Positions 21,543 to 52,934 of a stretch of DNA of 64,000 bases are shown here, one piece after another. A program made the position numbers and the translations under genes. The notes below the pieces were generated by a model. That model did no database searches, was not told where the DNA came from, and saw nothing but the letters and a program-made list of their open reading frames with translations. Each line of letters opens with the position of its first letter. Within the stretch, counting starts at the first letter, position 1. Origin of the DNA: a phage; sequence record PV946933.1. One strand, 5' to 3'.

Positions 21543-21572
21543 GTTTACACGTTGATGAGGTAGTGATACTAT
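21543..21572 (+). promoter_or_regulatory. T4-type early promoter (GTTTAC, 18 nt, TACTAT) with 9-bp inverted repeat bracketing the -10
   Basis: GTTTAC...TGATACTAT; GATGAGGTA/TACCTCATC inverted repeat flanks the -10. Confidence 0.5.
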
Positions 21573-21602
21573 TACCTCATCAAAATTAATTAGGAAAATA
21601 AA

Positions 21603-21875
21603 ATGAAAACTTTCAAAGAGTTTATCGTTGAATCTGCTCTTAATGAAGAAGTAAAAATTAGCAAATCTGTTAAGACTATGATTGATAATATAAATCATCT
21701 TTATAACATTGATTTGACGAATCATGTAACGTTAGGAAATAAACGAAACTTTTTTGTATTTGATATTTCAGAACTTGATCAGAATCAAATTAATAATATT
21801 GAACGCTTTGCTAATGAAAAAGGTCTGCGTCACGAGACGGCTGGTTATAAAAAATATGCAATTTATTTAAAATAA
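21603..21875 (+). CDS. Internal protein (IPI-locus) with capsid-targeting leader
   Basis: ORF track 90 aa; N-terminus MKTFKEFIVE matches the T4 internal-protein capsid-targeting sequence; position of ipI next to 57B. Confidence 0.7.
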   Translation: MKTFKEFIVESALNEEVKISKSVKTMIDNINHLYNIDLTNHVTLGNKRNFFVFDISELDQNQINNIERFANEKGLRHETAGYKKYAIYLK

Positions 21876-21878
21876 ATT

Positions 21879-21908
21879 GTTTACACGGTGGTTTAGTTGT
21901 GATACTAT
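21879..21908 (+). promoter_or_regulatory. T4-type early promoter
   Basis: GTTTAC, 18 nt, TACTAT upstream of next IP gene. Confidence 0.5.
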
Positions 21909-21942
21909 TACCCTATCAAAACAAAACTAAATGGAAATCAAA

Positions 21943-22251
21943 ATGAAAACATATCAAGAATTTATCAATGAAGCGGCTGCACCAAAGACATTCGTTATTA
22001 ATACTCAGGCGAGTCTTGATGATGAGTACGCGGAGGCAATTCTGAGGTCACTTGCTAAGAACGGCGTTGAAGTAATCGCCTCGGACTTTAAGAAAGGGGC
22101 TTCCGAGATGTTTATTTCTATAACTAAAGGATCTAAAGCTAAAATCAAATCATCATTCGGTGTTGCTCGTACCGATCAAATCGACAATCATGACTTTAAA
22201 CAAACTGGTGTTAAACGGCAGAACACAATTGCATCACGCGGAATAAAATAG
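21943..22251 (+). CDS. Internal protein (IPII-like) with capsid-targeting leader
   Basis: ORF track frame, start at second ATG giving MKTYQEFINE leader; paralogous to ORF 30753..31055. Confidence 0.7.
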   Translation: MKTYQEFINEAAAPKTFVINTQASLDDEYAEAILRSLAKNGVEVIASDFKKGASEMFISITKGSKAKIKSSFGVARTDQIDNHDFKQTGVKRQNTIASRGIK

Positions 22252-22263
22252 TTTATAAAAACA

Positions 22264-22293
22264 GTTTACTTTTAGATGGGGTAGTGATACTAT
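22264..22293 (+). promoter_or_regulatory. T4-type early promoter with inverted repeat bracketing -10
   Basis: GTTTAC, 18 nt, TACTAT; GATGGGGTA/TACCCTATC imperfect inverted repeat. Confidence 0.5.
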
Positions 22294-22321
22294 TACCCTA
22301 TCAACTACTGAGGAGAATAAA

Positions 22322-22507
22322 ATGAAACGTTGTGAATTAATTCGAAATGTTGCTATTGCAATTTCTGCTTCCGCTTTTAGTTTTTCAATGTTTGTTGGAT
22401 TTATATGCGGATTATTAACTACAGCAGAAAATGTTTTTTCACTTGTAGTAGCATTTTTAATTGGTTTAATCGCTATTGTTATGGATAAAATTTCTAAAGG
22501 TGAATAG
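22322..22507 (+). CDS. Small hydrophobic membrane protein
   Basis: ORF track 61 aa; two predicted TM helices; GAGGAG RBS upstream. Confidence 0.5.
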   Translation: MKRCELIRNVAIAISASAFSFSMFVGFICGLLTTAENVFSLVVAFLIGLIAIVMDKISKGE

Positions 22508-22508
22508 A

Positions 22509-22886
22509 ATGTATAAAGTGTACGCGGATTATCAGGCTAATCCATCTAAAAAGCCAAGCTGTCAAATAGGATGGGCTCATGATACTTTGCTTGAAGCAGT
22601 AGATGCTGCTCAAAAATTGGGATATAAATATGTAGAGATTGTTCAACTACCATCAGGAAAAGTTATTACTCTTGAAGAGTTCAATAATATTAAACCAAAC
22701 TTTTTACTTTTTGCAGGTGATAATTATTATCCTCGTGGTGGATATGATGATTTGATTGCGTATGCTGAAACAGAAGATGAATTACGCCAAATTATTGAAG
22801 ACAATAAATCAAAACGATTTGGCGATAGTTTTGACTGGTGGCAAATCGTAAATGCCCATACACATACTATTGTTGATAAAGGTTAA
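22509..22886 (+). CDS. Hypothetical protein
   Basis: ORF track frame 22476..22886; start moved to ATG after AAAGGTGA RBS (MYKVYADYQ). Confidence 0.55.
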   Translation: MYKVYADYQANPSKKPSCQIGWAHDTLLEAVDAAQKLGYKYVEIVQLPSGKVITLEEFNNIKPNFLLFAGDNYYPRGGYDDLIAYAETEDELRQIIEDNKSKRFGDSFDWWQIVNAHTHTIVDKG

Positions 22887-22888
22887 TA

Positions 22889-23176
22889 ATGATTCTTTAT
22901 GCGAAAGTATCATCCATTGAAAATGGATATAAATATGATCAAGAAGCAGCTAAAGCCTTGATTGATGATTATGGCATTTTAACATGTTTTGAAGTTGAAA
23001 AGGTTTACATTGACCGTTCATCTTCTCAAGTTAAATTAGTGAAGGAAGACCGTAAATTTAATACAGTAAATTTTGATTTCTTTATTGAAACAGAAAAAGG
23101 TCCTCTTGAATATGATATTTTCAAGAATCCTTTGGGTCTTGAATGCATCGTAAATATGTATTATCATAAATGGTAA
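22889..23176 (+). CDS. Hypothetical protein
   Basis: ORF track 95 aa; tightly packed after previous gene. Confidence 0.5.
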   Translation: MILYAKVSSIENGYKYDQEAAKALIDDYGILTCFEVEKVYIDRSSSQVKLVKEDRKFNTVNFDFFIETEKGPLEYDIFKNPLGLECIVNMYYHKW

Positions 23177-23273
23177 ATATGCTTTAAGAATTATTTGTTA
23201 TTATTAACTCATATCGCACTGATTAATACCCTCTATCATCAAGGGTTCTTGTTTGAGAGCCTTTGTTAATAAT

Positions 23274-23346
23274 TGGGAATTAGCCAAGTTGGTAAGGCAT
23301 AGCATTTTGACTGCTAGATGCAAAGGTTCGAGTCCTTTATTCCCAG
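23274..23346 (+). tRNA. tRNA-Gln (anticodon UUG)
   Basis: Cloverleaf readable: acceptor tgggaat/attccca, anticodon stem tagca/tgcta, loop ttTTGac, T-arm GGTTCGAGTCC; CCA not encoded. Confidence 0.8.
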
Positions 23347-23347
23347 C

Positions 23348-23434
23348 GCGAGAATGGTCAAATTGGTAAAGGCACAGCACTTAAAATGCTGCGGAATGAT
23401 TTCCTTGTGGGTTCGAGTCCCACTTCTCGCACCA
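23348..23434 (+). tRNA. tRNA-Leu (anticodon UAA)
   Basis: Acceptor gcgagaa/ttctcgc, loop ctTAAaa, long variable arm, T-arm GGTTCGAGTCC, CCA encoded. Confidence 0.8.
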
Positions 23435-23439
23435 AATTT

Positions 23440-23513
<74 letters not shown>

Positions 23514-23523
23514 ATTTAATTTA

Positions 23524-23597
23524 CTCCGTGTAGCTCAGTTTGGTAGAGCGCCTGATTTGGGATCAGGAGGTCCAAGGTTCAAATCCTTGTATGGAGA
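23524..23597 (+). tRNA. tRNA-Pro (anticodon UGG)
   Basis: Acceptor ctccgtg/tatggag (two GU pairs), anticodon stem cctga/tcagg, loop ttTGGga, T-arm GGTTCAAATCC; CCA not encoded. Confidence 0.75.
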
Positions 23598-23599
23598 CT

Positions 23600-23689
23600 G
23601 GAGGCGTGGCAGAGTGGTTTAATGCACCGGTCTTGAAAACCGGCAGTCGCTCCGGCGACTCATAGGTTCAAATCCTATCGCCTCCGCCA
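23600..23689 (+). tRNA. tRNA-Ser (anticodon UGA)
   Basis: Acceptor ggaggcg/cgcctcc, anticodon stem ccggt/accgg, loop ctTGAaa, long variable arm, CCA encoded. Confidence 0.8.
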
Positions 23690-23694
23690 GTTTT

Positions 23695-23770
23695 GCTGAT
23701 TTAGCTCAGTAGGTAGAGCAACTCACTTGTAATGAGAAGGTCGGCGGTTCGATTCCGTCAATCAGCACCA
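23695..23770 (+). tRNA. tRNA-Thr (anticodon UGU)
   Basis: Acceptor gctgatt/aatcagc, loop ctTGTaa, T-arm GGTTCGATTCC, CCA encoded. Confidence 0.8.
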
Positions 23771-23771
23771 A

Positions 23772-23846
23772 GGCCCTGTAGCTGGAAGGTTCAAGCAAGC
23801 GACTCATAATCGCCAGATGGTGGTTCAATTCCACCCAGGGCCACCA
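23772..23846 (+). tRNA. tRNA with CAU anticodon (most likely tRNA-Ile read as AUA after C34 modification, as in T4; tRNA-Met not excluded)
   Basis: Acceptor ggccctg/cagggcc, loop ctCATaa, T-arm GGTTCAATTCC, CCA encoded. Confidence 0.7.
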
Positions 23847-23859
23847 AATTAAGAATTAA

Positions 23860-23946
23860 GGGGAGTTATCCCGTAGAGGTAGCGGTGTGGACTGTAAATC
23901 CATTGTCATTGCGACTCGGGTGGTTCGACTCCATCACTCCCCACCA
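23860..23946 (+). tRNA. tRNA-Tyr (anticodon GUA), class II with long variable arm
   Basis: Acceptor ggggagt/actcccc, anticodon stem gtgga/tccat, loop ctGTAaa, variable stem-loop, T-loop ttcgact, CCA encoded. Confidence 0.7.
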
Positions 23947-23950
23947 ATTT

Positions 23951-24025
23951 GGATGTGTAGCTCAATGGCAGAGCGATCGCCTGTTAAGCGATTGGTTATA
24001 GGTTCGAATCCTATCACGTCCGCCA
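23951..24025 (+). tRNA. tRNA-Asn (anticodon GUU)
   Basis: Acceptor ggatgtg/cacgtcc, D-stem gctc/gagc, anticodon stem atcgc/gcgat, loop ctGTTaa, T-arm GGTTCGAATCC, CCA encoded. Confidence 0.75.
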
Positions 24026-24029
24026 AATC

Positions 24030-24105
24030 CGAGGCATAGCTCAGAAGGAAGAGCAAGGACCTTCTAAGTCCTGGGTCGTAGGTTCGATCCCTACTGCCTC
24101 GACCA
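24030..24105 (+). tRNA. tRNA-Arg (anticodon UCU)
   Basis: Acceptor cgaggca/tgcctcg, anticodon stem aggac/gtcct, loop ctTCTaa, T-arm GGTTCGATCC, CCA encoded. Confidence 0.8.
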
Positions 24106-24121
24106 ATTAAGTGAGGAAAAT

Positions 24122-24472: not shown

Positions 24473-24570
24473 GAAACCGGGTCGCTATCGGTAAGTCGTC
24501 GGACTGATGTTCCCTGGAGTATAGTTTCTCCCACAGTTTTACTGTGTTCTGATTCTTTACTATCACAGCA

Positions 24571-24727: not shown

Positions 24728-24779
24728 ACAAACACTTGCCTTAGCAGGTGGAACCCCGACAAGGTTGCCGCAAGGCTTA

Positions 24780-24806
24780 GCCCCGACCGAAAGGTTGGGG
24801 CTTTTT
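24780..24806 (+). terminator. Rho-independent terminator (GCCCCGACC-GAAA-GGTTGGGGC + T5)
   Basis: GC-rich stem, GAAA loop and U-run; near-identical copy at 25338-25364. Confidence 0.6.
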
Positions 24807-24808
24807 AG

Positions 24809-24816
24809 TATAAATA
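24809..24816 (+). promoter_or_regulatory. Candidate late promoter TATAAATA upstream of internal-protein gene
   Basis: Exact TATAAATA about 40 nt upstream of ATG 24856. Confidence 0.4.
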
Positions 24817-24855
24817 TAGTAGTGTATTAAATCACGAATTAAAACAGGAAATAAG

Positions 24856-25329: not shown

Positions 25330-25337
25330 CATTCTTA

Positions 25338-25364
25338 GCCTCGACCGAAAGGTTGGGGCTTTTT
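25338..25364 (+). terminator. Rho-independent terminator (GCCTCGACC-GAAA-GGTTGGGGC + T5)
   Basis: Near-identical repeat of the hairpin at 24780-24806. Confidence 0.6.
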
Positions 25365-25454
25365 AGTTTGAATCGCATAGAGAATGCTGTTACGGATAAT
25401 AACAAAGTAATAAATAATTAATAACTGACCGATAAATTATTTCAAGGATTTTAA

Positions 25455-26185: not shown

Positions 26186-26215
26186 GTTTACATCCCCGTT
26201 CTTCCATGGTACTAT
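26186..26215 (+). promoter_or_regulatory. T4-type early promoter with conserved leader (shared with promoters at 40538 and 41977)
   Basis: TTTTCACAAAA-GTTTAC...TGGTACTATACAACTATCAACT conserved in three copies. Confidence 0.5.
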
Positions 26216-26259
26216 ACAACTATCAACTACTGATACAGAAAAACAACTTGGAGAATGAA

Positions 26260-26523
26260 ATGGATAATTACGGCGAACTGTTCAACTTCTTTATGAAATG
26301 CGTTTCAGAAGATTTCGGTCGTACAGTGAATGATATTAAAGTCATCGGTCCTGACCATCCGATGTTTGAAACTTACGCAGTAATGGGTAATGAAGACGGT
26401 CAGTGGTATACTGTAAAAGTTGTGATTAATATGTTCACTGCTGAAGGTTATGTTAAACTGTCTTCTAAAGTTTATCATGATAATGATGAAATCGCAGAAG
26501 AATATTTCAATAATATGAAATAA
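26260..26523 (+). CDS. Hypothetical protein
   Basis: ORF track frame 26206..26523; start moved downstream of the promoter -10 to ATG after GGAGAA RBS (MDNYGELF). Confidence 0.55.
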   Translation: MDNYGELFNFFMKCVSEDFGRTVNDIKVIGPDHPMFETYAVMGNEDGQWYTVKVVINMFTAEGYVKLSSKVYHDNDEIAEEYFNNMK

Positions 26524-26591
26524 TTGTGTACAAACACCAAGGACGGTGTTATTATAGACTTATCAAAACAAACACAGAAACGGAGAAATAA

Positions 26592-28759: not shown

Positions 28760-29728
<969 letters not shown>

Positions 29729-29732: not shown

Positions 29733-29762
29733 GTTTACTTTCTCCTAGAACTGTGATAGTAT
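29733..29762 (+). promoter_or_regulatory. T4-type early promoter
   Basis: GTTTAC, 18 nt, TAGTAT upstream of ATG 29800. Confidence 0.45.
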
Positions 29763-29799: not shown

Positions 29800-30117
29800 A
29801 TGAAAACGTTTAAAGAATTTATTGCAGAATCTGCCCAAGGACAACGTGTAGAAGGCGGTTATATCTGGATTGAACAAGTTGAGCCGCCAAGTCGCACTTC
29901 TACAGGTAAATGGAAAATCACTGTTGATGGTCCTGGTGGTAAACGTAGGACTCTTAAAGAAATTAACGGGTACTATGAAGAAGCTCTTTCTGACGCGGGT
30001 ACTTATATGATGCAAATCATGATTAAAAACCCAGAAAATCGTTTTGCGGCTAGAGTTTTCCGCCGTATTGGAAATAAGCTTTATGATGCATATTCTAAAA
30101 ACTTCCCTAAAGAATAA
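29800..30117 (+). CDS. Internal-protein-like protein with capsid-targeting leader
   Basis: ORF track 105 aa; N-terminus MKTFKEFIAE. Confidence 0.65.
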   Translation: MKTFKEFIAESAQGQRVEGGYIWIEQVEPPSRTSTGKWKITVDGPGGKRRTLKEINGYYEEALSDAGTYMMQIMIKNPENRFAARVFRRIGNKLYDAYSKNFPKE

Positions 30118-30132
30118 AAATAAAGGAAATAC

Positions 30133-30713: not shown

Positions 30714-30731
30714 AGGCCTATACTTAGGCCT
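30714..30731 (+). terminator. Hairpin AGGCCTA-TACT-TAGGCCT after IPIII-like gene
   Basis: 7-bp perfect stem directly after stop codon, followed by ATTT. Confidence 0.4.
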
Positions 30732-30752
30732 ATTTACATTTAAAGGAAACAT

Positions 30753-31055
30753 ATGAAAACATTTAAAGAATTTATCACTGAAGCAAAAGCCCCGAAGGTT
30801 TTTCAAATTTGTTCACAAGGAAATTTAGACAAAGAATACGTTGACGCCATCGTAGCAAGCATTGTCAACCAAGGCGTGCAAGTAGATGCAGTTGAATTTA
30901 CCAAAGGCCCTACCTTTAATATCGTTGTATCTAAGGGTTCTTTGGCTAAAATTAAAAAGGCCTGGGGTGTTATGAGAGCTTACCAAGTAGATGATTCTGC
31001 TCCCGGGCCGAAAGTACGAATGAATACCCTTAAGGGAGGCCGTGAATACGTTTAG
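30753..31055 (+). CDS. Internal protein II-like protein with capsid-targeting leader
   Basis: ORF track 100 aa; N-terminus MKTFKEFITE; paralogue of 21943..22251. Confidence 0.65.
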   Translation: MKTFKEFITEAKAPKVFQICSQGNLDKEYVDAIVASIVNQGVQVDAVEFTKGPTFNIVVSKGSLAKIKKAWGVMRAYQVDDSAPGPKVRMNTLKGGREYV

Positions 31056-31133
31056 GCCTATTGTCTATACTTATTAGAATATTATACGGACTACCATGTG
31101 CCACGGAATGGCCCAACCTAAAAGAGAAACTAA

Positions 31134-33130: not shown

Positions 33131-33160
33131 GTTTACTTTTCCTCTTGACTGTGGTATAAT
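33131..33160 (+). promoter_or_regulatory. T4-type early promoter (GTTTAC, 18 nt, TATAAT)
   Basis: Consensus -35/-10; CCTCTTGACT/AGTTAAGAGG inverted repeat brackets the -10. Confidence 0.5.
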
Positions 33161-33187
33161 TTTTCTATCAGTTAAGAGGAGAATAAC

Positions 33188-33649
33188 ATGACTATCAACA
33201 CAGAAGTTTTTATCCGTCGAAATAAACTCCGTCGTCACTTTGAGTCGGAGTTTCGTCAAATTAACAATGAGATTCGTGAGGCATCAAAAGCAGCAGGAGT
33301 CTCATCGTTTCATCTAAAATATTCTCAACATCTTCTTGATCGTGCAATTCAACGGGAGATTGATGAGACATATGTTTTTGAATTATTCCATAAAATAAAA
33401 GACCATGTTTTAGAAGTTAATGAATTCCTGAGTATGCCTCCACGCCCTGACATTGACGAGGATTTTATTGATGGGGTTGAATATCGTCCTGGGCGTTTAG
33501 AAATCACTGATGGAAATCTTTGGCTTGGATTTACAGTTTGTAAACCTAATGCGAAGTTCAAAGACCCGTCACTTCAGTGCAGGATGGCAATTATCAACAG
33601 TCGTCGTTTACCAGGAAAGGCTTCTAAAGCAGTAATTAAAACTCAATGA
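33188..33649 (+). CDS. regB: Probable RegB-like site-specific endoribonuclease
   Basis: ORF track 153 aa (same length as T4 RegB); position upstream of tk; assignment from memory and synteny. Confidence 0.55.
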   Translation: MTINTEVFIRRNKLRRHFESEFRQINNEIREASKAAGVSSFHLKYSQHLLDRAIQREIDETYVFELFHKIKDHVLEVNEFLSMPPRPDIDEDFIDGVEYRPGRLEITDGNLWLGFTVCKPNAKFKDPSLQCRMAIINSRRLPGKASKAVIKTQ

Positions 33650-36913: not shown

Positions 36914-36918
36914 CATTA

Positions 36919-36940
36919 GTCTCCTTCGGGAGACTTTTTT
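36919..36940 (+). terminator. Rho-independent terminator with C(UUCG)G tetraloop (GTCTCC-TTCG-GGAGAC + T6)
   Basis: Perfect hairpin followed by TTTTTT. Confidence 0.65.
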
Positions 36941-36950
36941 CATTTTACCG

Positions 36951-36980
36951 GTTTACTTTCCATTTGAGCTGTGATACTAT
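36951..36980 (+). promoter_or_regulatory. T4-type early promoter
   Basis: GTTTAC, 18 nt, TACTAT. Confidence 0.5.
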
Positions 36981-37762: not shown

Positions 37763-37792
37763 GTTTACAAGTTGGCAAGGTTATGGTATAGT
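37763..37792 (+). promoter_or_regulatory. T4-type early promoter with 9-bp inverted repeat bracketing -10
   Basis: GTTTAC, 18 nt, TATAGT; GTTGGCAAG/CTTGCCAAC flanks the -10. Confidence 0.45.
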
Positions 37793-37927
37793 AATCTTGC
37801 CAACTGCCAAGGAGAAGAGAATGAAAGTTTTGTTTGTTGTGTATGTGATGATTCAATATAATTACCCAATGTTTACTTATAATCTGGTGAACAACATTAT
37901 TGATATTATTCAAAGGAGTATGTAATT

Positions 37928-38491: not shown

Positions 38492-39010
38492 ATGTTTATT
38501 TCAAGTGAAAGTGGTTTAATTCGTGTTGAATTTAAAAATGACATCTTCCTTATTCAAGGAGATGATATTATTAAAATGAGTTATGACGAAATCAAGAAAA
38601 TTTGCCGTGCTCTTGAAAGTCATGGAAAAGTAAATGCTGTTATTGACATCGGTGATTTATGGGTGACACTTTATGAAGTATCCGAAGGATTTAACATTGA
38701 AGATGAAAATAACATCTTAGCTATTGATAAAAGAAGTGATTTGTTTGATGTATTAAAAGTTTATGAACAGTCAAACGGTGGAAGAAAAGCCGTATTGATT
38801 TATCAAAAACCACATTCATGTGGAACTGCTTCAATTATTTCAAATATTGAAGATGAAACTGATACTTATATGTGTGTTTTGAAAGCGGGCGGTGACCGTC
38901 ATCCGGATTTTATTTCTATTCGTCAAAACAATGGAGAAATTTCATTATCAAAATCAGAAGCTGAAGCTATGATTAAGTATTTAACAACTGTTACACCTTC
39001 AATGAAATGA
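38492..39010 (+). CDS. Hypothetical protein (paralogue of previous gene)
   Basis: ORF track 172 aa; C-terminus EAEAMIKYLTTVTPSMK. Confidence 0.5.
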   Translation: MFISSESGLIRVEFKNDIFLIQGDDIIKMSYDEIKKICRALESHGKVNAVIDIGDLWVTLYEVSEGFNIEDENNILAIDKRSDLFDVLKVYEQSNGGRKAVLIYQKPHSCGTASIISNIEDETDTYMCVLKAGGDRHPDFISIRQNNGEISLSKSEAEAMIKYLTTVTPSMK

Positions 39011-39477
39011 TAATTATGATTATTAATGAAAACTCTTGGCACTATAAATTATTCAAAATGTTTAATGATGAATGGAAACGACCTAAGACACTGTGTGCAT
39101 ACTTTTGGTCTATTGTCATTCCTACATTCTTCGTTTCTTTTTTCGGATGTACTATACTCGCAGGTCTAACTATCATCTGCGCAGAAATCATGCAGAAATG
39201 GCTTATTTTTGGTAGTTTATGGACTCTTATTCCATCAGCATTTATACTTGCCATTTTGCTTGTTTTACTTATTATCGGTTCATTTGTTATTCCTGCACAT
39301 TTGCGTGAAAAATATAAAGATTATAAATGGAAAAAGGATTATGCTTTACATGTAGAAAATATTGATAGGGCGTATAAAGGTTTACCTCCTATTCAACCCA
39401 AGAAATCTATTATCGTCGAATTTTTAAAAACGCGTAAAGCTAAAGTATGTCCTGTTATTGAATATAAGGCTAAATGA
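39007..39477 (+). CDS. Hypothetical membrane protein
   Basis: ORF track 156 aa; multiple TM helices. Confidence 0.5.
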   Translation: MIIMIINENSWHYKLFKMFNDEWKRPKTLCAYFWSIVIPTFFVSFFGCTILAGLTIICAEIMQKWLIFGSLWTLIPSAFILAILLVLLIIGSFVIPAHLREKYKDYKWKKDYALHVENIDRAYKGLPPIQPKKSIIVEFLKTRKAKVCPVIEYKAK

Positions 39478-40487: not shown

Positions 40488-40489
40488 TA

Positions 40490-40513
40490 GGGAGCCTTCG
40501 GGCTCCCTTTTTT
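40490..40513 (+). terminator. Rho-independent terminator with C(UUCG)G tetraloop (GGGAGCC-TTCG-GGCTCCC + T6)
   Basis: Perfect 7-bp GC stem, UUCG loop, U-run. Confidence 0.7.
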
Positions 40514-40537
40514 ATTTCAAAAATTTTTCACAAAACG

Positions 40538-40567
40538 GTTTACAAGCATAAAGCTTTATGGTACTAT
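40538..40567 (+). promoter_or_regulatory. T4-type early promoter with conserved leader
   Basis: GTTTAC, 18 nt, TACTATACAACTATCAACTGATACAGA, shared with 26186 and 41977 modules. Confidence 0.5.
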
Positions 40568-40601
40568 ACAACTATCAACTGATACAGATTTGGAGAATAA
40601 A

Positions 40602-41570
40602 ATGAAAACTGTAACTATCAATAAGGGTATCTACTTCGGTAAAGAAATCTCTGGAACTTTTGAGCTCTTAGGCGAATGGTTCCCAGATAATGCTCCAGTA
40701 GATGCACAAGGAGATGGTAAAGTTTTTGTTGAAATTGACGGTAAACGTCGCGGTGTTTGGGTTTACAAATCAGATATTTCATATGATGGTGTAAAAGTTG
40801 AAGAAGTTAAAGAATCATATGAAGATATGAAAACCCGCATTAATAAAAGATTTAATGTTATGGGAATGATGACGAATGGTATTATTAATGGAAATATTCG
40901 TTCATTAATTATCTCTGGCGCAGCAGGTATTGGTAAAACGTATTCTTTAGATAAAGCTTTAAATAAAGCAAATGATAATGGATACATTGAATATAAAAGC
41001 ATTAATGGTAAAATCTCTGGTATTGGTCTTTATGAACAGCTTTGGAATAATCGTGAAGAGAATTCTGTGCTTTTGATTGATGATGTGGATGTTTTCTCTG
41101 ATATGGACATTCTTAATCTTCTGAAAGCTGCTCTGGACACTGGAGAGACCCGTAAAGTTTGCTGGAGCACTGCATCTTCTTACTTAGAAGAAAAAGGCAT
41201 TGACCGTGAGTTTGAATTTAAAGGAACGATTGTTTTTATCACAAACGTTGACATTGACCGCGAATTAGACCGTGGTACTAAACTTGCTCCACATTTACAA
41301 GCATTAGTGTCCCGCTCAGTTTATTTAGATTTGGGTGTTCACACTAATGAAGAAATTATGGTCAGGGTTGAAGATGTTATTCTTTCAACCGACATGATGC
41401 AAAAGCGCGGTCTTTCTGATGAAGAAACTTATAAAGCATTATCATGGATGAAAGTCAATGTTAATCGTTTACGCAATGTTTCACTGCGTACTGCTCTTTA
41501 TCTTGCTGACTTTATTATGACCGACAAAAACGGTTGGGAAGAAATTGCTGAGGTTACTCTTCTGAAATAA
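40602..41570 (+). CDS. AAA-type P-loop ATPase
   Basis: Walker A GAAGIGKT, Walker B VLLIDDVD; ORF track frame with start at MKTVTINKG after GGAGAA RBS. Confidence 0.6.
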   Translation: MKTVTINKGIYFGKEISGTFELLGEWFPDNAPVDAQGDGKVFVEIDGKRRGVWVYKSDISYDGVKVEEVKESYEDMKTRINKRFNVMGMMTNGIINGNIRSLIISGAAGIGKTYSLDKALNKANDNGYIEYKSINGKISGIGLYEQLWNNREENSVLLIDDVDVFSDMDILNLLKAALDTGETRKVCWSTASSYLEEKGIDREFEFKGTIVFITNVDIDRELDRGTKLAPHLQALVSRSVYLDLGVHTNEEIMVRVEDVILSTDMMQKRGLSDEETYKALSWMKVNVNRLRNVSLRTALYLADFIMTDKNGWEEIAEVTLLK

Positions 41571-41976: not shown

Positions 41977-42006
41977 GTTTACAAGACTGTTCCTCTGTGG
42001 TACTAT
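41977..42006 (+). promoter_or_regulatory. T4-type early promoter with conserved leader
   Basis: GTTTAC, 18 nt, TACTATACAACTATCAACTACGGAGG. Confidence 0.5.
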
Positions 42007-42034
42007 ACAACTATCAACTACGGAGGAACACAAA

Positions 42035-42562
42035 ATGAACGCTAAAGATATTTTCAACTTGGTAAATTACAACGATGGTAAATTTAAATCTGAAGCACAA
42101 AGTAAGTTCTTTAATGACATCTCAATCGGAGGTGAAATCACAGTTGATGGAGGACAAATTTACAAATCCCGCTGGAATTGGATCGTTATTATTGATGAGA
42201 TCGGTATTGTAGAAATTTACAAGAATACGAATAAAAATCGTACATTACACTGGTCTCGTGATACTAACGAACAGTACAAAAAGGATAAAGCATCTAAATT
42301 ATCTCGTGTAACTCAAGAAGATATTGAGTTCATCAAGAAAGATATTTTAATGTATGATAATTTAATTGCTGAAGAGCAAGCTGTTATTGATAAATTTGAT
42401 GAGATTAAAGCTTCTCGTGAAATTCCTGATTTTATGAAAGAATCAGTAAATGAACGATACACTCTCATTTCAGAGCGTATTGAAACTTACAAAAAGCAAA
42501 GAGCTGAACGCCAAAATACTCTTCGGAAGTTTGAAGAACGGTTAAAGACGGTACTCGCATAA
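42035..42562 (+). CDS. Hypothetical protein with C-terminal coiled coil
   Basis: ORF track 175 aa. Confidence 0.5.
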   Translation: MNAKDIFNLVNYNDGKFKSEAQSKFFNDISIGGEITVDGGQIYKSRWNWIVIIDEIGIVEIYKNTNKNRTLHWSRDTNEQYKKDKASKLSRVTQEDIEFIKKDILMYDNLIAEEQAVIDKFDEIKASREIPDFMKESVNERYTLISERIETYKKQRAERQNTLRKFEERLKTVLA

Positions 42563-43924: not shown

Positions 43925-44953
43925 ATGAAAACTCGTTCTCAAATTGAAGATATGGTTCGTACTGCCAGTGATACTCGTAATGTTATGACATTTTTGTGTG
44001 AAAATAATTTAGACCCTGATAAAGTTAATCGTGCTATTCATCACTTTAAATATCTGAACAGCAGCGAATGGGTGCGTAATTTTAGCGAAGCGGGGTATAT
44101 TACACAAATGACGGCTCGTGAGCAGCTCACCGATTTCTGTAAAACTATTGATTATAAAAATCCTCTATTTGTTCAAGGCGTTGGTCAAAGTAAGGTCGAT
44201 TTATCATCTGGATTTTTCAATCCAAATCATTATCGTATTGAATGGAGATTTATTGCTCTGTTCCGTAGACAATTAAAGCAAATTTTATCAACTGCGAGTC
44301 GATTAAAAGGTTCTGATATTAACTTAAAGAATCTGAAATTTGATGGTTATACTCTTCAGATGGAAGTAAGACCATTAAAAGAAAATAATAGAACTGCACG
44401 AATTAGCTTTAAACCTAATACAAAAAATTCTCTTTCAATTTGCGAATGCCTTAAATCGCAGTTGACAGAAGCATTTAAGTATATGGATGTTGTTGCCGCT
44501 GTTCAGTCTAAGATTTTACCTCGTTTTGAGCGATTTAAATTAGACACAACAACATATGAACTTGATATGATCGTTTCATTTAAATACGATTTTTTGAGAA
44601 AGGACGAAGTCCCGCAAGAGAAAAAGCAGGAAGTGCAAGATAACTTAAATTTAAATTTATCCAATTACTCATCAAACGATCCTAAATTTTGGATGTATAG
44701 CTCAGGTAATGAAGATGCATGGAAATTCAATAAAGTGAATTTTCTTCCTGTTGAAAATCCGAGTCTTAAACCTGTTGAAAAATGGCATGCAGATGCGATT
44801 GAGAAGTCTCTTAAAGCAGTAGATGATGAACTCGTTAAAGCAACTAATGAAATGTTAGAAGTTGAAAAGGCGCTAGAAAAAGCTCAAGAAAAAGTCAAAA
44901 ATCTCACGAAGCAACGTTCTAAACTGAACAATGCACTAAATGCACTGAACTAG
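43925..44953 (+). CDS. Hypothetical protein with C-terminal coiled-coil tail (paralogue family member)
   Basis: ORF track 342 aa; C-terminus EVEKALEKAQEKVKNLTKQRSKLNNALNALN. Confidence 0.55.
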   Translation: MKTRSQIEDMVRTASDTRNVMTFLCENNLDPDKVNRAIHHFKYLNSSEWVRNFSEAGYITQMTAREQLTDFCKTIDYKNPLFVQGVGQSKVDLSSGFFNPNHYRIEWRFIALFRRQLKQILSTASRLKGSDINLKNLKFDGYTLQMEVRPLKENNRTARISFKPNTKNSLSICECLKSQLTEAFKYMDVVAAVQSKILPRFERFKLDTTTYELDMIVSFKYDFLRKDEVPQEKKQEVQDNLNLNLSNYSSNDPKFWMYSSGNEDAWKFNKVNFLPVENPSLKPVEKWHADAIEKSLKAVDDELVKATNEMLEVEKALEKAQEKVKNLTKQRSKLNNALNALN

Positions 44954-44982
44954 TTTACTTTGCCACAAGGATGTGGTATAAT
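44953..44982 (+). promoter_or_regulatory. T4-type early promoter (GTTTAC, 18 nt, TATAAT)
   Basis: Consensus -35/-10 upstream of ATG 45011. Confidence 0.5.
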
Positions 44983-45010
44983 GTTCTTACTTTCTACTGA
45001 GGAGATTAAT

Positions 45011-46012
45011 ATGACTCGTAACGAATATATCAAATCATTCAATAGCGTTATTGATGATAAAGCTATACCGATGTTTGGTCAAAATAGCGTTATTTCTATT
45101 ATCAATCAATGGCTCAATAGTGTTGACGCAAGTATTGTTTCTTCTGTTAAATTTATTCATGAAATTCGTAAAATTTCTAGCCGTGTAGATAAAGATGTTA
45201 TCAAGAAAACCTTTAAAGAGTCTCGTCTTCTTTCATATTTGGTTAATCGGGATATTCTTGGTAATTTTGGGAAAGAAATTAAACGAACCAAAGATGTAGT
45301 AGGATATAATTGGTTCGGTGATGTTAATTCTTATCATCTTAATAATAAAGAAGACCCTGAGAATATTTTTACTCGTCGTTGGATTAGTAATTTCAGGCTT
45401 TTCAAAGGACAGATTCTAAAATCAGCTTCTAAATTATGTTATGGCGATTATCGTCAAATTCATCCTTTGGCTTCTGATATGATCATCATAAAAGAATATG
45501 AACTTGATAAAAATAAAGTAGCTATTTTTGTGAATTATGGATTTTTTACACCAGAAACTAACCAAAAGAACATTAATAAATTTTTCTCAATTGCTAGCAC
45601 TATAACTCGTCAATTAGAAACCGCATTACTTTGTATGGAAACAGTAGAAAATATTCATACGTATCCTTTTAAGAATATATGCGGTTGGGAAGGATATAAA
45701 ATTGTAGTTAGTCTTCGTGAAGTGAAATGTGCTTATTCATTAACTGATAAAGAAATTTATCAACAAAAATGTGAGGAAATTGTGAATACTCCTAAAGAAG
45801 AAACTACACTTGAGGAACTAATGGATAATCTTGACGATTCGCCTGAACCAGTAGAAATTCGTCCAGAAGTTATTGCACTAGAAAAAGCTTATAAAGAAGC
45901 TCTAGAAATTTCTAATAAAGCGCAGAAAGAATATGAGCAGGCTAAAAGGATTTGGGAAGAATCTGTTAATCGTCTGGATCGTCTTGAACAAGCTTTACAG
46001 TTAATTAAGTAA
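45011..46012 (+). CDS. Hypothetical protein with C-terminal coiled-coil tail (paralogue family member)
   Basis: ORF track frame 44960..46012; start downstream of promoter at MTRNEYIKSF after GAGGAG RBS. Confidence 0.55.
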   Translation: MTRNEYIKSFNSVIDDKAIPMFGQNSVISIINQWLNSVDASIVSSVKFIHEIRKISSRVDKDVIKKTFKESRLLSYLVNRDILGNFGKEIKRTKDVVGYNWFGDVNSYHLNNKEDPENIFTRRWISNFRLFKGQILKSASKLCYGDYRQIHPLASDMIIIKEYELDKNKVAIFVNYGFFTPETNQKNINKFFSIASTITRQLETALLCMETVENIHTYPFKNICGWEGYKIVVSLREVKCAYSLTDKEIYQQKCEEIVNTPKEETTLEELMDNLDDSPEPVEIRPEVIALEKAYKEALEISNKAQKEYEQAKRIWEESVNRLDRLEQALQLIK

Positions 46013-48325: not shown

Positions 48326-48448
48326 AACCTTGGTGGGCGGCTAGATGGGAAACAGTAGAGCCAGAGCCGGAAGAACCGGTTTACACTGATGAAGAAACAG
48401 TATATAATGAACCTACAATAAATGACTTAATTGATATGGAGATGGGAC

Positions 48449-49586: not shown

Positions 49587-51400
49587 CAATTGAAAAAGAA
49601 ATTGAAGGATTGATTCATAAAACTAATAAAGACCTTTTAAACGAGAATGCTAATAAAGATTCTCGTGTTTTTCCAACTCAACGGGACCTTATGGCTGGTA
49701 TTGTGTCTAAACACATTGCCAAAAATATGGTCCCGTCTTTTATTATGAAAGCGCATGAAAGCGGAATTATCCATTTCCACGATATTGATTATTCCCCTGC
49801 TCTTCCATTTACTAATTGTTGTTTAGTAGATTTAAAAGGAATGCTTGAGAACGGATTTAAGCTCGGTAATGCACAGATTGAAACTCCTAAATCAATCGGC
49901 GTTGCTACTGCAATTATGGCACAAATTACTGCGCAGGTTGCTTCTCATCAATATGGTGGAACGACTTTTGCGAATGTAGATAAAGTACTTTCTCCTTATG
50001 TTAAACGCACCTATGCAAAACATATTGAGGATGCAGAAAAATGGCAAATCGCTGATGCGTTGAATTATGCCCAATCTAAAACAGAAAAAGACGTATACGA
50101 TGCATTCCAAGCTTATGAATATGAAGTAAATACTCTCTTTAGTTCAAACGGACAAACGCCTTTTGTAACAATTACATTTGGTACGGGAACTGACTGGACT
50201 GAACGGATGATTCAGAAAGCAATTCTGAAAAATCGTATTAAAGGTCTCGGTCGTGATGGGATAACTCCTATTTTCCCTAAACTTGTTATGTTCGTTGAAG
50301 AAGGTGTTAATCTTTATAAAGACGATCCGAACTATGATATTAAGCAGCTTGCTCTAGAGTGTGCAAGCAAAAGAATGTATCCTGACATCATTTCGGCTAA
50401 GAACAATAAAGCTATCACAGGTTCATCTATTCCTGTTTCTCCAATGGGTTGCCGTAGTTTCTTGAGCGTATGGAAAGATTCGACTGGTAATGAAATTCTT
50501 GATGGACGTAATAATCTTGGCGTTGTAACACTGAATCTTCCTCGCATTGCGTTAGATTCTTATATTGGAACACAATTCAATGAACAGAAATTTGCCGAAT
50601 TGTTCAATGAACGAATGGATTTATGTTTTGAAGCATTGATGTGTAGAATAAGTTCCTTAAAAGGAGTTAAAGCGACTGTTGCTCCTATTCTTTATCAAGA
50701 AGGTGCATTCGGGGTTCGTCTTAAACCTGATGACGATATAATTGAGTTATTTAAAAACGGTAGAAGTTCAGTGTCCCTAGGATACATTGGTATTCACGAA
50801 TTGAATATTCTTGTCGGTCGTGATATTGGACAAGAAATTTTAACTAAAATGAATGCTCGTCTTAAGCAGTGGACTGAAAGAACCGGATTTGCTTTTAGTT
50901 TGTATTCTACTCCTGCTGAAAACCTGTGCTATCGCTTCTGTAAACTTGATACCGAAAAATATGGAAGTGTAAAGGATGTTACTGATAAAGGCTGGTACAC
51001 TAACAGTTTCCACGTTTCAGTAGAAGAAAATATTACTCCGTTTGAAAAGATTTCTCGCGAAGCCCCGTATCATTTCATTGCAACAGGTGGTCACATTTCT
51101 TATGTTGAACTTCCTGATATGAAAAATAACCTAAAAGGTCTTGAGGCTGTATGGGATTATGCTGCACAACATTTAGATTATTTTGGTGTTAATATGCCAG
51201 TAGATAAATGTTTTACATGCGGAAGTACCCATGAAATGACTCCTACTGAAAACGGATTTGTTTGTTCTATTTGTGGAGAAACTGATCCTAAAAAGATGAA
51301 CACCATAAGAAGAACTTGCGGTTATTTGGGAAATCCGAACGAGCGCGGATTTAATCTTGGCAAAAATAAAGAAATCATGCATAGGGTTAAACACCAATGA
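49583..51400 (+). CDS. nrdD: Anaerobic ribonucleoside-triphosphate reductase NrdD (intron-less)
   Basis: ORF track 605 aa single frame; C-terminal glycyl-radical motif RRTCGYLG and Zn ribbon CFTCG...CSICG. Confidence 0.95.
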   Translation: MTIEKEIEGLIHKTNKDLLNENANKDSRVFPTQRDLMAGIVSKHIAKNMVPSFIMKAHESGIIHFHDIDYSPALPFTNCCLVDLKGMLENGFKLGNAQIETPKSIGVATAIMAQITAQVASHQYGGTTFANVDKVLSPYVKRTYAKHIEDAEKWQIADALNYAQSKTEKDVYDAFQAYEYEVNTLFSSNGQTPFVTITFGTGTDWTERMIQKAILKNRIKGLGRDGITPIFPKLVMFVEEGVNLYKDDPNYDIKQLALECASKRMYPDIISAKNNKAITGSSIPVSPMGCRSFLSVWKDSTGNEILDGRNNLGVVTLNLPRIALDSYIGTQFNEQKFAELFNERMDLCFEALMCRISSLKGVKATVAPILYQEGAFGVRLKPDDDIIELFKNGRSSVSLGYIGIHELNILVGRDIGQEILTKMNARLKQWTERTGFAFSLYSTPAENLCYRFCKLDTEKYGSVKDVTDKGWYTNSFHVSVEENITPFEKISREAPYHFIATGGHISYVELPDMKNNLKGLEAVWDYAAQHLDYFGVNMPVDKCFTCGSTHEMTPTENGFVCSICGETDPKKMNTIRRTCGYLGNPNERGFNLGKNKEIMHRVKHQ

Positions 51401-51867
51401 ATTACGATAGATTTTATCCCTGCGATTTTGTAAATGGCCCTGGATGCAGGGTCGTTCTTTTCGTTACGGGGTGTTTGCATAAATGTGAAGGGTGTTATAA
51501 TAAATCAACATGGAATGCTAGAAATGGCGTTCCATTCACTGGTGAAACACTAGAACAATTAATTGAATGTTTGAATAATGATTATATAGAAGGATTAACT
51601 ATAACTGGAGGAGACCCTCTTTATCCTGATAACCGAGATGCTGTTCATTGCATTGTTCAAACGGTAAAAAATCTTTATCCAAATAAAAGCATTTGGTTGT
51701 GGACAGGGTACAAGTTTGAAGATATTAAACAACTAGAAATGCTTAAATATGTTGATGTTATTATTGATGGGAAGTATGAGAAAAATCTTCCGACCAAAAA
51801 GCTGTGGCGAGGTTCAGATAATCAGCGACTTTGGTCAAATACCGATGGGGTGTGGAAACATGATTAA
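51397..51867 (+). CDS. nrdG: Anaerobic ribonucleotide reductase activating enzyme NrdG (radical SAM)
   Basis: ORF track 156 aa; CxxxCxxC (CLHKCEGC); ATGA overlap with nrdD stop. Confidence 0.9.
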   Translation: MNYDRFYPCDFVNGPGCRVVLFVTGCLHKCEGCYNKSTWNARNGVPFTGETLEQLIECLNNDYIEGLTITGGDPLYPDNRDAVHCIVQTVKNLYPNKSIWLWTGYKFEDIKQLEMLKYVDVIIDGKYEKNLPTKKLWRGSDNQRLWSNTDGVWKHD

Positions 51868-51981
51868 ACTGAATTATATTATTGATACTATAAATGATAT
51901 GATTTTTCATTTTGGTCCAGAATTTTATTCGCAGTATAGTTTAGTACTTATCAATGCTTGGTTAATCAATTAAGGGTAAAT

Positions 51982-52197
51982 ATGTATAAATTTCGTAAAG
52001 GTTTAGCTGATTTTCTTACAACTGTAACGTTCTTTTTGTTTATGGCAGTTGGAGCTATTTTCCTTATTCCTTTTATTGCTATATTTTTCGTGATTAGCTT
52101 AATTTCTCCAGAAAAAGGCTTATCTTCTAGTGAGTTCAATGAGCGTCTGGATAAAATTACTAACAAACTGAATGCTGTTCTTGATAAAAAGGCTTAA
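51982..52197 (+). CDS. Small membrane protein
   Basis: ORF track frame 51958..52197; start at ATG after AAGGG RBS; TM helix TVTFFLFMAVGAIFLIPFIAIFFVISLI. Confidence 0.45.
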   Translation: MYKFRKGLADFLTTVTFFLFMAVGAIFLIPFIAIFFVISLISPEKGLSSSEFNERLDKITNKLNAVLDKKA

Positions 52198-52199
52198 TT

Positions 52200-52511
52200 G
52201 TGATTAGTTTTGAGCGGTATGTGGTAGAGAGTTGGAAGGGTTTTGATATGTTCGGTAATGACTATTATTTCTATGAATGTAGTCTAAATCCTAGTTTTTG
52301 GGCTGGACGAGAACGAGAACTTGAAGAAATTAATAACCGTGCTGAATTGTTAGGTGAATTACCTACGGTTTATTTTACCTTTGATGCATCTGGATTTGTT
52401 ATCCAGGTTTATTTTCCTGAAGAAAATTCTGGCGATGATTCTGTTAACCCGCCATACTGGGCTTATCAAGGAATTATTTCTCGTGGAACAAAACTCGAAC
52501 TTAAAGAATAA
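52200..52511 (+). CDS. Hypothetical protein (start uncertain: GTG at 52200 or internal ATG at 52248)
   Basis: ORF track 103 aa; overlaps start region of nrdH. Confidence 0.45.
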   Translation: MISFERYVVESWKGFDMFGNDYYFYECSLNPSFWAGRERELEEINNRAELLGELPTVYFTFDASGFVIQVYFPEENSGDDSVNPPYWAYQGIISRGTKLELKE

Positions 52512-52806
52512 GATTGAAGTCTATGGAATTCCAGATGAAGTAGGTCGTTGTCCTGGATGTCAATCAGTTACAAAACTTCTAAAGGAGCTCAATGCTCCTT
52601 TTACTTTCTATAAAGTTCTTACAAATAATGGTAAGATTGAGTATGATCGCCCACTGATTGTATCTCTTGCTAAACGTGCTGGATTCACATCTCTTAACAT
52701 TCGTTATCCAGTCATTTTCATCAATGATTCTAGACAAAAGAACATTAAACACTTCAAAGAAACTCTCATTTCACTTGGATATGATAGAGATATCATAGAA
52801 GACTAA
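52483..52806 (+). CDS. nrdH: Glutaredoxin-like protein NrdH; no in-frame ATG, start provisionally GTG at 52483 (alternative ATT at 52513)
   Basis: ORF track frame 52354..52806; redoxin core KIEVYGIPDEVGRCPGCQSV with CPGC active site; no ATG precedes the redoxin domain without a long overlapping extension. Confidence 0.6.
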   Translation: MEQNSNLKNKIEVYGIPDEVGRCPGCQSVTKLLKELNAPFTFYKVLTNNGKIEYDRPLIVSLAKRAGFTSLNIRYPVIFINDSRQKNIKHFKETLISLGYDRDIIED

Positions 52807-52810
52807 GACG

Positions 52811-52830
52811 GGCCCTCTGGGCCTTTCTTT
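52811..52830 (+). terminator. Terminator-like hairpin GGCCC-TCT-GGGCC followed by T-rich run
   Basis: GC stem directly after nrdH stop followed by TTTCTTTCTC. Confidence 0.4.
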
Positions 52831-52904
52831 CTCATATTCTGTATATTACCATTCTAAGCTATCGTTCCCTTCTTATCATTCCCTAAAATAATTTTCACAA
52901 AGTT

Positions 52905-52934
52905 GTTTACAAGAAGTTTAAACTGTGGTATTAT
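52905..52934 (+). promoter_or_regulatory. T4-type early promoter
   Basis: TTTTCACAAAGTT-GTTTAC, 18 nt, TATTAT; upstream pyrimidine-rich block resembles the one before promoter 26186. Confidence 0.45.

Follow-up and report, generated by a model that had tools for sequence, protein, structure and literature searches.

Early promoters of a T4-like phage nested in hairpins predicted to form only on read-through RNA

Introduction

In bacteriophage T4 the genes e, soc, 49 and I-TevI are controlled by translational gates in which a promoter lies inside an RNA hairpin, and the same arrangement has been described for segB and for mobE of phage Aeh1 (PMC3014915, section 29; PMC2988022). Every gene for which this kind of control is known is a late gene (PMC2988022). 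Here we describe hairpins embedded in early promoters, among them those of regB and nrdC.8, in a 64,000-nucleotide stretch of phage DNA (sequence record PV946933.1), which is called the window throughout, and compare them with the late gates and with other promoter-associated repeats.

T4 early promoters (Pe) are read by the unmodified host sigma-70 RNA polymerase and were reportedly described by Liebig and Ruger in 1989 and by Wilkens and Ruger in 1996. Repoila et al. (1994, EMBO J 13:4181) are said to have found a sequence of about 70 bp at the internal-protein (IP) loci of T-even phages, composed of a T4 early promoter and an overlapping inverted repeat, and to have proposed recombinational shuffling for the IP loci only. 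The T4 early promoter is an unusually complete sigma-70 promoter with additional conserved positions (PMC2988021), and TTTACW-N17-TAYWAT has been given as the T4/PST promoter consensus (Comeau et al., 2014; PMC4122927). In the promoter-early stem-loop (PeSL) modules, a stem-loop just upstream of the promoter and an AT-rich region acts as a terminator (PMC2839356; PMC4122927, legend of figure 3), and PeSL-like elements have been mentioned at the IP loci of T-even phages (Arbiol et al., 2010; PMC2839356). A search of the full-text literature, with the older primary papers lying outside it, found no report of dyad symmetry, an inverted repeat or read-through in connection with a T4 early promoter.

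Results

Spacer-leader complementarity at five early promoters

At 14 sites, namely the thirteen credible early promoters of the window (Table 1) and 20065, each spacer (-33 to -13) was paired with its own leader (-6 to AUG), and for the thirteen promoters fold z-scores were computed against dinucleotide shuffles. At five of the roughly thirteen credible promoters the spacer has a variable part (about -28 to -16) that is complementary to sequence downstream of the -10 element. The duplex energies are -16.4 kcal/mol at 21543, -14.4 at 22264, -22.5 at 33131, -19.6 at 37763 and -20.8 at 41977, and no spacer of another promoter in the window pairs as well with any of these five leaders (cross-partner mean -7.5 kcal). 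The RNA fold z-scores are -4.57, -2.78, -5.82, -5.21 and -5.11 in the same order, while the remaining eight promoters range from -2.3 to +1.4. The promoter at 29733 has a duplex p of 0.006 but a full-fold z of only -1.1, and it was not counted. Intrinsic terminators were rejected as an identity of the embedded hairpins, which have no T-run, are followed by A/C-rich sequence and are absent from the terminator scan.

An earlier note, made from the sequence alone, had listed four promoters with inverted repeats flanking the -10 element (21543, 22264, 33131 and 37763) and had named background frequency as one point on which they might fail. All four repeats are present and lie above chance (z of -4.6, -2.8, -5.8 and -5.2 against dinucleotide shuffles). 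The description has to be amended in three respects: the right arm at 33131 lies on the Shine-Dalgarno (SD) sequence and does not adjoin the -10 element, 37763 with its -10 sequence TATAGT is not a strict member of the set of 12 promoters to which it had been assigned, and a fifth case, at 41977 (z -5.1), had been overlooked.

The hairpins have two geometries. In Type I (21543, 22264 and 37763), the right arm begins directly after the -10 element and reaches to about +3 to +6; the loop, of 10 nt, is formed by the extended -10 element. Between the helix and the AUG lie 16-20 nt in the window and 15-22 nt in most of the wider set described below. At 21543 the predicted start lies inside the right arm, and orthologues of this hairpin carry a G.T variant; the stem at 22264 is perfect in one relative (GATAGGGTA). 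In Type II (33131 and 41977, the promoters of regB and nrdC.8), the right arm is the SD sequence itself, and a loop of 17-21 nt holds the -10 element and the predicted start.

At all five promoters the left arm lies upstream of the -10 element and thus of the predicted start. Therefore, the hairpin would be impossible in RNA from the promoter itself and could form only in sense RNA that comes from upstream. Sources for such RNA, the existence of which we infer, may be the upstream co-directional promoters, including the late promoters of gene e at 29205 and 29218, which are not separated from the Type II promoters by a strong terminator. For regB, the predicted probability that the region from the SD sequence to the AUG is unpaired is 0.53 on the promoter's own transcript versus 0.14 on read-through RNA, and for nrdC.8 it is 0.57 versus 0.31. 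The lysozyme gene e (29234-29728), which has the same architecture, served as a positive control: its classical hairpin was recovered at 29198-29238 (-14.9 kcal, z -4.55), with the two late promoters (TATAAATA) in and before the loop and a helix that masks the SD sequence and the AUG.

Conservation with changed arms and strand bias

The predicted masking of the SD sequence at the regB promoter was found in six genus-level lineages, and the distal arms are different in each of them. The arms are CCTCTTGACTG/CAGTTAAGAGG in Tequatrovirus, CTCCTCTAGTTG/CAACTAGAGGAG in an IMG/VR lineage with a 77%-identical RegB (L008-L010), CTCCTGTAAG/CTTACAGGAG in Moonvirus, TTCTCCTCT/AGAGGAGAA in Gelderlandvirus and ATCCTCATTTG/CAAATGAGGAT in Winklervirus; in Karamvirus TCTCC/GGAGA encloses an inner GGGCTAT/ATAGCCC. 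Because the arms stand in shifting registers, this is evidence of covariation lineage by lineage, not column by column, and conservation at regB was judged by per-lineage folds and shuffles in place of RNAalifold.

Changed arms were also found elsewhere. At the nrdC.8 promoter one lineage has the arms CTCCAGTAG/CTACTGGAG, and another has a Type I stem made of AGGTCTAT/ATAGACCT. One pair of the mobD.2 stem is A-T in T4, G.T in ime09 and in the contig L121, and G-C in the window. One and the same loop, GTGATACTAT, is combined with the unrelated arm pairs GGTGTAGGAGC/GCTCCTACAC, GGTAGAAGAC/GTCTTCTACC and CCGGAAGT/ACTTCCGG, and also with the series GGTCT/AGACC, GGGCT/AGCCC and AGGCT/AGCCT.

The mismatches inside the stems, which were defined with a symmetric mismatch penalty, comprise 19 G.T or T.G on the + strand (G.U as RNA), 3 A.C or C.A, and 6 others. 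In addition, the sense RNA hairpin is more stable than the antisense hairpin in 32 of 36 cases (Wilcoxon p about 1e-5). The sequences are related, and the mismatch and strand figures are therefore suggestive and not proof; as such they speak for sense-strand pairing, in the simplest case of the RNA, rather than for a cruciform or a protein operator.

Occurrence in T4 and in a wider promoter set

The T4 genome was surveyed in three segments that cover 130 of its 169 kb. Nine of 26 early promoters have spacer-leader complementarity, with an empirical p of at most 0.017 against 650 cross-partner duplexes; in the order of position they belong to motB.2, dmd, nrdC.8, mobD.2, regB, ipI, alt.-3, alc and ndd.4. 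None of these nine coincides with the four T4 promoters that have an upstream terminator, which says little, as only about 1.4 overlaps would be expected.

A pooled set of 214 distinct promoter-leaders from T4, ime09, the window and IMG/VR contigs was examined with a strand-neutral inverted-repeat score. A score of at least 8 was reached by 54 of the 214, and spacer shuffles gave 2.6. In a first pooled set of 156 promoter-leaders, the stems scoring at least 7 comprised 25 distinct arm pairs of Type I and 16 of Type II.

Canonical early promoters in a Tequatrovirus segment

The exact motif GTTTAC-N18-TAYWAT occurs 12 times in the window, always on the + strand; 0.09 occurrences are expected, and none of 100 shuffles reached 12. 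A relaxed scan gave 23 hits on the + strand and 4 on the - strand, including the credible one-mismatch promoters 26526, 29733 and 37763. The extended -10 motif TGn and an AT-rich UP region are present at 13 sites. Two strict matches, 48379 and 53350, are doubtful as promoters because they lie inside or between open reading frames (ORFs) and have neither TGn nor an AT-rich upstream region. The early-promoter sites are on the early-gene strand and directly before an SD sequence and ATG, and several are positional orthologues of T4 promoters. Since the T4 GenBank record has no promoter features, the evidence for orthology to mapped promoters comes from sequence and reviews. Judged by these features, the recurring motif is the canonical, already known T4-type early promoter. 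The site 20065-20094 (GTTTAA..TATAAT, before gene 1) was rejected, since it overlaps a MotA box (AATGCTT..N..TATAAT) and is more likely the middle promoter of gene 1.

The count of at least 12 + strand promoters in the earlier note was thus reproduced at the same positions, with the two doubtful sites among them, and its assignment to the early promoters of a T4-type phage agrees with the orthology to T4 sites and with the Tequatrovirus matches given below. It had also pointed to an extended leader at 26186, 40538 and 41977. The corresponding 22-nt block TGGTACTATACAACTATCAACT is indeed found at these promoters exactly three times (26207, 40559 and 41998; none expected by chance). It is the conserved -14 to +8 part of the Pe consensus: the conserved bases of T4 early promoters run past the -10 element (..C-T-A-T-C-A-A..), which explains the common leader, and the block, together with a longer leader, recurs at several unlinked T4 promoters.

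The longer leader, ..CAACTACTGATACAGA..TTGGAGAAT..ATG, is common to the promoters 26186 (26207-26262) and 40538 (40559-40604) and is also present at five unlinked T4 promoters (27080, 55384, 70696, 163673 and 167086). A transcript from a promoter of this type would start with AUCAACUACUGAU.. and could form a small 5'-terminal hairpin (UAUCA/UGAUA). The spacer of promoter 40538 is filled by a perfect 14-bp palindrome (40547-40560, CATAAAGCTTTATG), which is also conserved at the T4 promoters 55384 and 146875; as all of it is upstream of the -10 element, it is unlike the embedded hairpins. At promoter 44953 (44961-45010) a 7-bp hairpin, GCCACAAGGATGTGGT, lies wholly inside the spacer and -10 element, and a second helix joins UUCUUA just after the -10 element to the SD sequence (z -2.3), which may be a third geometry or chance.

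A megablast search with positions 21000-42000 matched 1208 phage records, nearly all of them T4-like, and the top matches were Tequatrovirus phages with about 96% identity across about 95% of the query. On this similarity the window is a segment of a Tequatrovirus (T4-like) genome. By the annotation of ime09 and T4, the order of genes on the + strand is 4, 2, 3, 1, 57A, 57B, the IP locus, trna.x and the tRNAs, followed by e.x, nudE, e, IP genes, denV, vs.x, regB, vs, tk, rI and mobD.x, and then by nrdC.11 through nrdC, 49, nrdD and onward; therefore, the + strand here corresponds to the strand that carries the early genes in T4. The GC skew reverses at about 18 kb, where gene orientation also switches. 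Three further features were noted. The T4 homing-endonuclease gene mobD is exchanged for two other ORFs at 38510-39473, about 1 kb of T4 nrdD sequence, annotated in T4 as overlapping the I-TevII gene, is missing at 50118-50121, and two near-identical, strong terminator-like hairpins (24779-24802 and 25337-25360; AGCC(C/T)CGACCGAAAGGTTGGGGCT and a T-run) follow the tRNA region at a distance of 560 bp from each other.

Table 1. Early promoters, predicted embedded hairpins and PeSL-type composites of the window
Feature	Position	Strand	Remarks
Early promoter before first IP-type ORF (21603-21875)	21543..21572	+	-35 GTTTAC, -10 TACTAT at 21567-21572; orthologue of T4 ipI promoter
Type I hairpin, promoter 21543	21552..21583	+	arms 21552-21562 TTGATGAGGTA / 21573-21583 TACCTCATCAA; shuffle p 0.002
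Early promoter before second IP-type ORF (21943-22251)	21879..21908	+	same right-arm sequence as 21543; no significant hairpin here (z -0.09)
Early promoter before trna.4-like ORF (22322-22507)	22264..22293	+	strict motif match
Type I hairpin, promoter 22264	22275..22302	+	arms 22275-22283 GATGGGGTA / 22294-22302 TACCCTATC, one G.T
Early promoter with shared 22-nt -10/leader block	26186..26215	+	no embedded hairpin (z -1.6)
Early promoter, one mismatch (GTGTAC)	26526..26555	+	left edge of cassette replaced versus T4
Early promoter before IP-type ORF (29800-30117)	29733..29762	+	-10 TAGTAT; weak spacer-leader complementarity (duplex p 0.006; fold z -1.1)
Early promoter of regB (33188-33649)	33131..33160	+	strict match; identical to T4 promoter at 62797
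Type II hairpin, regB promoter 33131	33137..33183	+	left arm 33137-33151 in spacer, right arm 33169-33183 over SD AAGAGGAG; core arms 33141-33151 CCTCTTGACTG / 33169-33179 CAGTTAAGAGG, one G.T
PeSL-type composite	36918..36980	+	terminator-like hairpin 36918-35, AGTCTCCTTCGGGAGACT and T-run, then Pe 36951
Early promoter before 34-aa mobD.2-like ORF (37821-37925)	37763..37792	+	-10 TATAGT; T4 counterpart 57990
Type I hairpin, promoter 37763 (mobD.2-like)	37770..37805	+	arms 37770-37782 AGTTGGCAAGGTT / 37793-37805 AATCTTGCCAACT, one G.T
PeSL-type composite before nrdC.10	40489..40567	+	terminator-like hairpin 40489-40508 and T-run, then Pe 40538; same layout at T4 55384
Early promoter of nrdC.8 (42035-42562)	41977..42006	+	strict match; T4 counterpart 53943
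Type II hairpin, nrdC.8 promoter 41977	41988..42030	+	arms 41988-41998 TGTTCCTCTGT / 42020-42030 ACGGAGGAACA; right arm over SD
Early promoter before ORF starting at 45011	44953..44982	+	small hairpin inside spacer/-10 (z -2.3)
Consensus match at ORF junction, doubtful promoter	48379..48408	+	no TGn, no AT-rich upstream region
Early promoter before ORF 52965-53147	52905..52934	+	no hairpin (z +1.4)
Consensus match inside ORF 53095-53433, doubtful promoter	53350..53379	+	no TGn; conserved in T4 (41261)

PeSL composites and the internal-protein locus

The terminator scan found no terminator-like hairpin upstream of 21543, 22264, 33131, 37763 or 41977. The placement of the stem-loop that defines PeSL was found in the window only at 36951 and 40538, where the hairpins lie 16 and 30 nt before the early promoter and match the published layout; in T4 there are four terminator-promoter composites, with the hairpin ending 28-31 nt before the -35 element. 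The earlier note had compared its inverted repeats with PeSL modules and had placed them in front of the most variable genes. The first comparison is not supported, as the stem-loops are located within promoter and leader and no T-run follows them, and the two genuine composites (Table 1) had not been picked. The second is not supported for three of the five hairpin promoters, because regB, mobD.2 and nrdC.8 are conserved genes in blocks that are collinear with T4.

Five ORFs of the window have the capsid-targeting leader MKT(F/Y)(K/Q)EFI: 21603 (MKTFKEFI), 21943 (MKTYQEFI), 29800, 30133 and 30753. This set differs from ipI, ipII and ipIII of T4, and homology to T4 is lost at 21624-22284, 29832-30121 and 30728-31095. 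The IP-locus promoters 21543, 21879 and 22264 are homologous repeats around a replaced cassette, with the -35 element, GTGATACTAT and TACCyyATCAA in common; at the promoter orthologous to 21879, relatives carry TAGGGT/ACCCTA. The points at which T4 homology stops (21624) and resumes (22284) are both inside promoter cassettes, and further breaks are at 26523 and 29832. These IP-locus breaks agree with the account of Repoila et al. (1994) by Arbiol et al. (2010; PMC2839356), and an inverted repeat that overlaps an IP-locus promoter was probably on record as early as 1994. Altogether, 4 of 30 breakpoints of the T4 alignment fall within -60 to +100 of an early promoter, versus 1.5 expected (P = 0.066), and all four are at the IP and e.7 cassettes. 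Gene shuffling, which the earlier note had suggested, is compatible with the IP locus alone, where the repeats bound a replaced cassette. Its observation of the repeats is confirmed and its interpretation partly supported.

Discussion

We judge it somewhat probable that the early promoters described here are nested in a sense RNA hairpin that forms only on read-through transcripts and that masks the SD sequence at regB and nrdC.8. The hairpin would form solely in sense RNA that enters the promoter from upstream, and the promoter's own early transcript would be without the left arm. At the Type II promoters, where the right arm is the SD sequence, translation from read-through transcripts would be poor, and on such RNA the GGAG would be protected against cleavage by RegB. 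The translation of the gene would be tied to its own early promoter and would end once the early promoters are shut off. The regB promoter has been called a typical early promoter, and RegB has been described as tightly regulated, with an early promoter that is off after 2-3 min and with cleavage at its own GGAG (PMC3014915). Such regulation would be matched by a hairpin that keeps regB silent, and its GGAG hidden, on long transcripts made later. At the Type I promoters the SD sequence would stay free. IP proteins are needed late, and therefore translation from long transcripts must stay possible at these loci. The Type I hairpin may be an intercistronic insulator, a processing site or a 3'-stabiliser, placed in the sole free positions of a 60-nt intergenic promoter, but this is a guess that we hold weakly. 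As far as the sequences tell, an early promoter in a hairpin at conserved genes appears to vary, in a new way, a mechanism already known from T4.

Several observations weigh against this reading. The start sites are assumed positions, taken as 7 nt after the -10 element. At the Type I promoters no effect on the SD sequence is predicted: 21543 and 37763 show no drop in the accessibility of the region from the SD sequence to the AUG on read-through RNA, and at 22264 it falls from 0.83 to 0.56 only in the 150-nt read-through fold, by extra pairs outside the hairpin, the arms of which are off the SD sequence. Type I and Type II substitute for each other at nrdC.8, and the selected property may therefore be the hairpin as such and not the masking of the SD sequence. 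With eight regB promoter-leaders aligned by MAFFT, RNAalifold returned no consensus structure, a result that we attribute to the shift of register of the arms between genera; among the lineages compared, phage VR7 is the only one without the regB hairpin. The G.U excess is weaker when mismatches are counted by crude arm family (10 G.U, 3 A.C and 4 others), and the 214 promoter-leaders are related to each other and not independent. Finally, two thirds of the early promoters are without such a hairpin.

An alternative is that the inverted repeats are part of mobile promoter cassettes, either PeSL or IP-flanking repeats, and serve at the level of DNA as homology or as a structure target, for example as a cruciform cut by endonuclease VII, for the swapping of ORFs. 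The IP locus would suit this explanation well: its three homologous promoters flank ORFs with capsid-targeting leaders, T4 homology breaks and resumes inside promoter cassettes there, and such shuffling is exactly what the PeSL papers propose for T4/PST (PMC4122927), with PeSL-like elements at T-even IP loci according to Arbiol et al. (PMC2839356). However, the same hairpin design is present in the T4-collinear blocks of regB, mobD.2 and nrdC.8, and the regB version has been kept across six genera. The arms differ between promoters and therefore offer no homology for recombination, and the homology that exists is in the promoter consensus and not in the inverted repeat. Only two of the promoter-near breakpoints are near hairpin promoters, the stem-loop is not at the place that defines PeSL, and the G.U bias and the asymmetry between sense and antisense point to one strand. 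As an explanation of the hairpins we thus regard mobile cassettes as unlikely, but consensus repeats that serve recombination and arms that serve an RNA function can exist side by side.

Control sites in double-stranded DNA, either an operator bound by a dimeric protein of phage or host or a cruciform that depends on supercoiling, could aid the shut-off of early promoters, a process that is not understood according to reviews (PMC2988021; PMC3014915), and the dyads at 21543, 22264 and 37763 are indeed centred on the -10 element. We nevertheless consider such sites highly improbable. In one genome the arms of different promoters bear no relation to each other, and at any one locus they covary, which excludes one sequence-specific binding protein and led us to reject a protein operator; the Type II arms are 17-21 nt apart, with the right arm being the ribosome-binding site; in a cruciform, every G.T mismatch of the sense strand would face an A.C counterpart in the opposite strand; and only about one third of the early promoters have the repeats. 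Least probable of all, with hardly any weight left to it, is complementarity by chance or as a by-product of two constrained segments, a pyrimidine-rich spacer and a purine-rich SD sequence. Several promoter spacers are CT-rich and SD sequences are GA-rich, and cross-partner duplexes attain -13 to -17 kcal in the top 5-1%. This explanation is already disfavoured by the data, because the observed duplexes exceed those with all cross-partner spacers in the window and are significant in T4, the pooled set exceeds its shuffles about as 54 to 2.6, the complementarity runs past the SD sequence into the lineage-specific flanks TGACTG/CAGTTA, TAGTTG/CAACTA, TGTAAG/CTTACA and ATTTG/CAAAT, and the Type I stems do not involve any SD sequence.

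A wider version of the read-through hairpin may be put forward, which we find possible yet rather doubtful. About one third of the T4-type early promoters would deliberately lie inside a hairpin specific to read-through RNA, which would act as a general early-only gate and RegB shield where the right arm is the SD sequence, and as a separate intercistronic RNA element where the hairpin brackets the -10 element. The proposed gate set would comprise regB and nrdC.8, and in T4 also motB.2, alc, alt.-3 and ndd.4, and the set of -10-bracketing elements would comprise ipI, dmd and mobD.2. If this is true, the current view of the way in which T4 restricts early proteins to the first minutes of infection would change. 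A nested hairpin could explain why proteins such as RegB are made only in the first minutes in spite of upstream middle and late transcription, and the masking of ribosome-binding sites by promoters in hairpins would extend from late genes to early genes. Spacer-leader complementarity would also be a cheap annotation marker for transcript-specific translation in Straboviridae genomes. In addition, two ideas that are merged in the PeSL literature can now be separated, namely, promoter repeats as recombination substrates and stem-loops with a function at the RNA level.

With regard to the known systems, the promoters themselves show no difference from T4 early promoters: they have the AT-rich UP region, the -35 element GTTTAC, TGn and a -10 element of the TAtAAT type, and only two of the 12 strict matches are probably not promoters. 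With the PeSL literature they share the consensus TTTACW-N17-TAYWAT and possibly the enrichment in plastic regions. The differences from PeSL are the position of the arms of all five hairpins, in the spacer and downstream of the -10 element, the absence of a T-run, a right arm that is the discriminator and start region or the SD sequence, and the location of three of the five hairpin promoters before conserved genes. As with the IP repeat of Repoila et al. (1994), 21543 and 22264 flank ORFs with IP leaders and bound a cassette that is replaced relative to T4, while 21879 is without the inverted repeat. What goes beyond that repeat is the same design at regB, nrdC.8 and mobD.2, and at dmd, motB.2, alc, alt.-3 and ndd.4 of T4, together with the evidence at the RNA level.

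There is also a likeness to the gates of e, soc, 49 and I-TevI. The promoter lies inside the hairpin, and the geometry at all five promoters would fit that of these gates, in that a transcript from the predicted start site would be translated without the 5' arm; at 33131 and 41977 a helix over the SD sequence and AUG is predicted on long transcripts. In contrast to the e-type gate, the SD sequence and AUG are outside the helix at 21543, 22264 and 37763, and the embedded promoter is an early and not a late or middle promoter, RegB being an early protein. Because the embedded promoter is early, the gate would be early-only, and thus a variant of the e-type gate and not a member of it. By this analogy, Type II would be a mirror-image counterpart to these late-only gates of T4.

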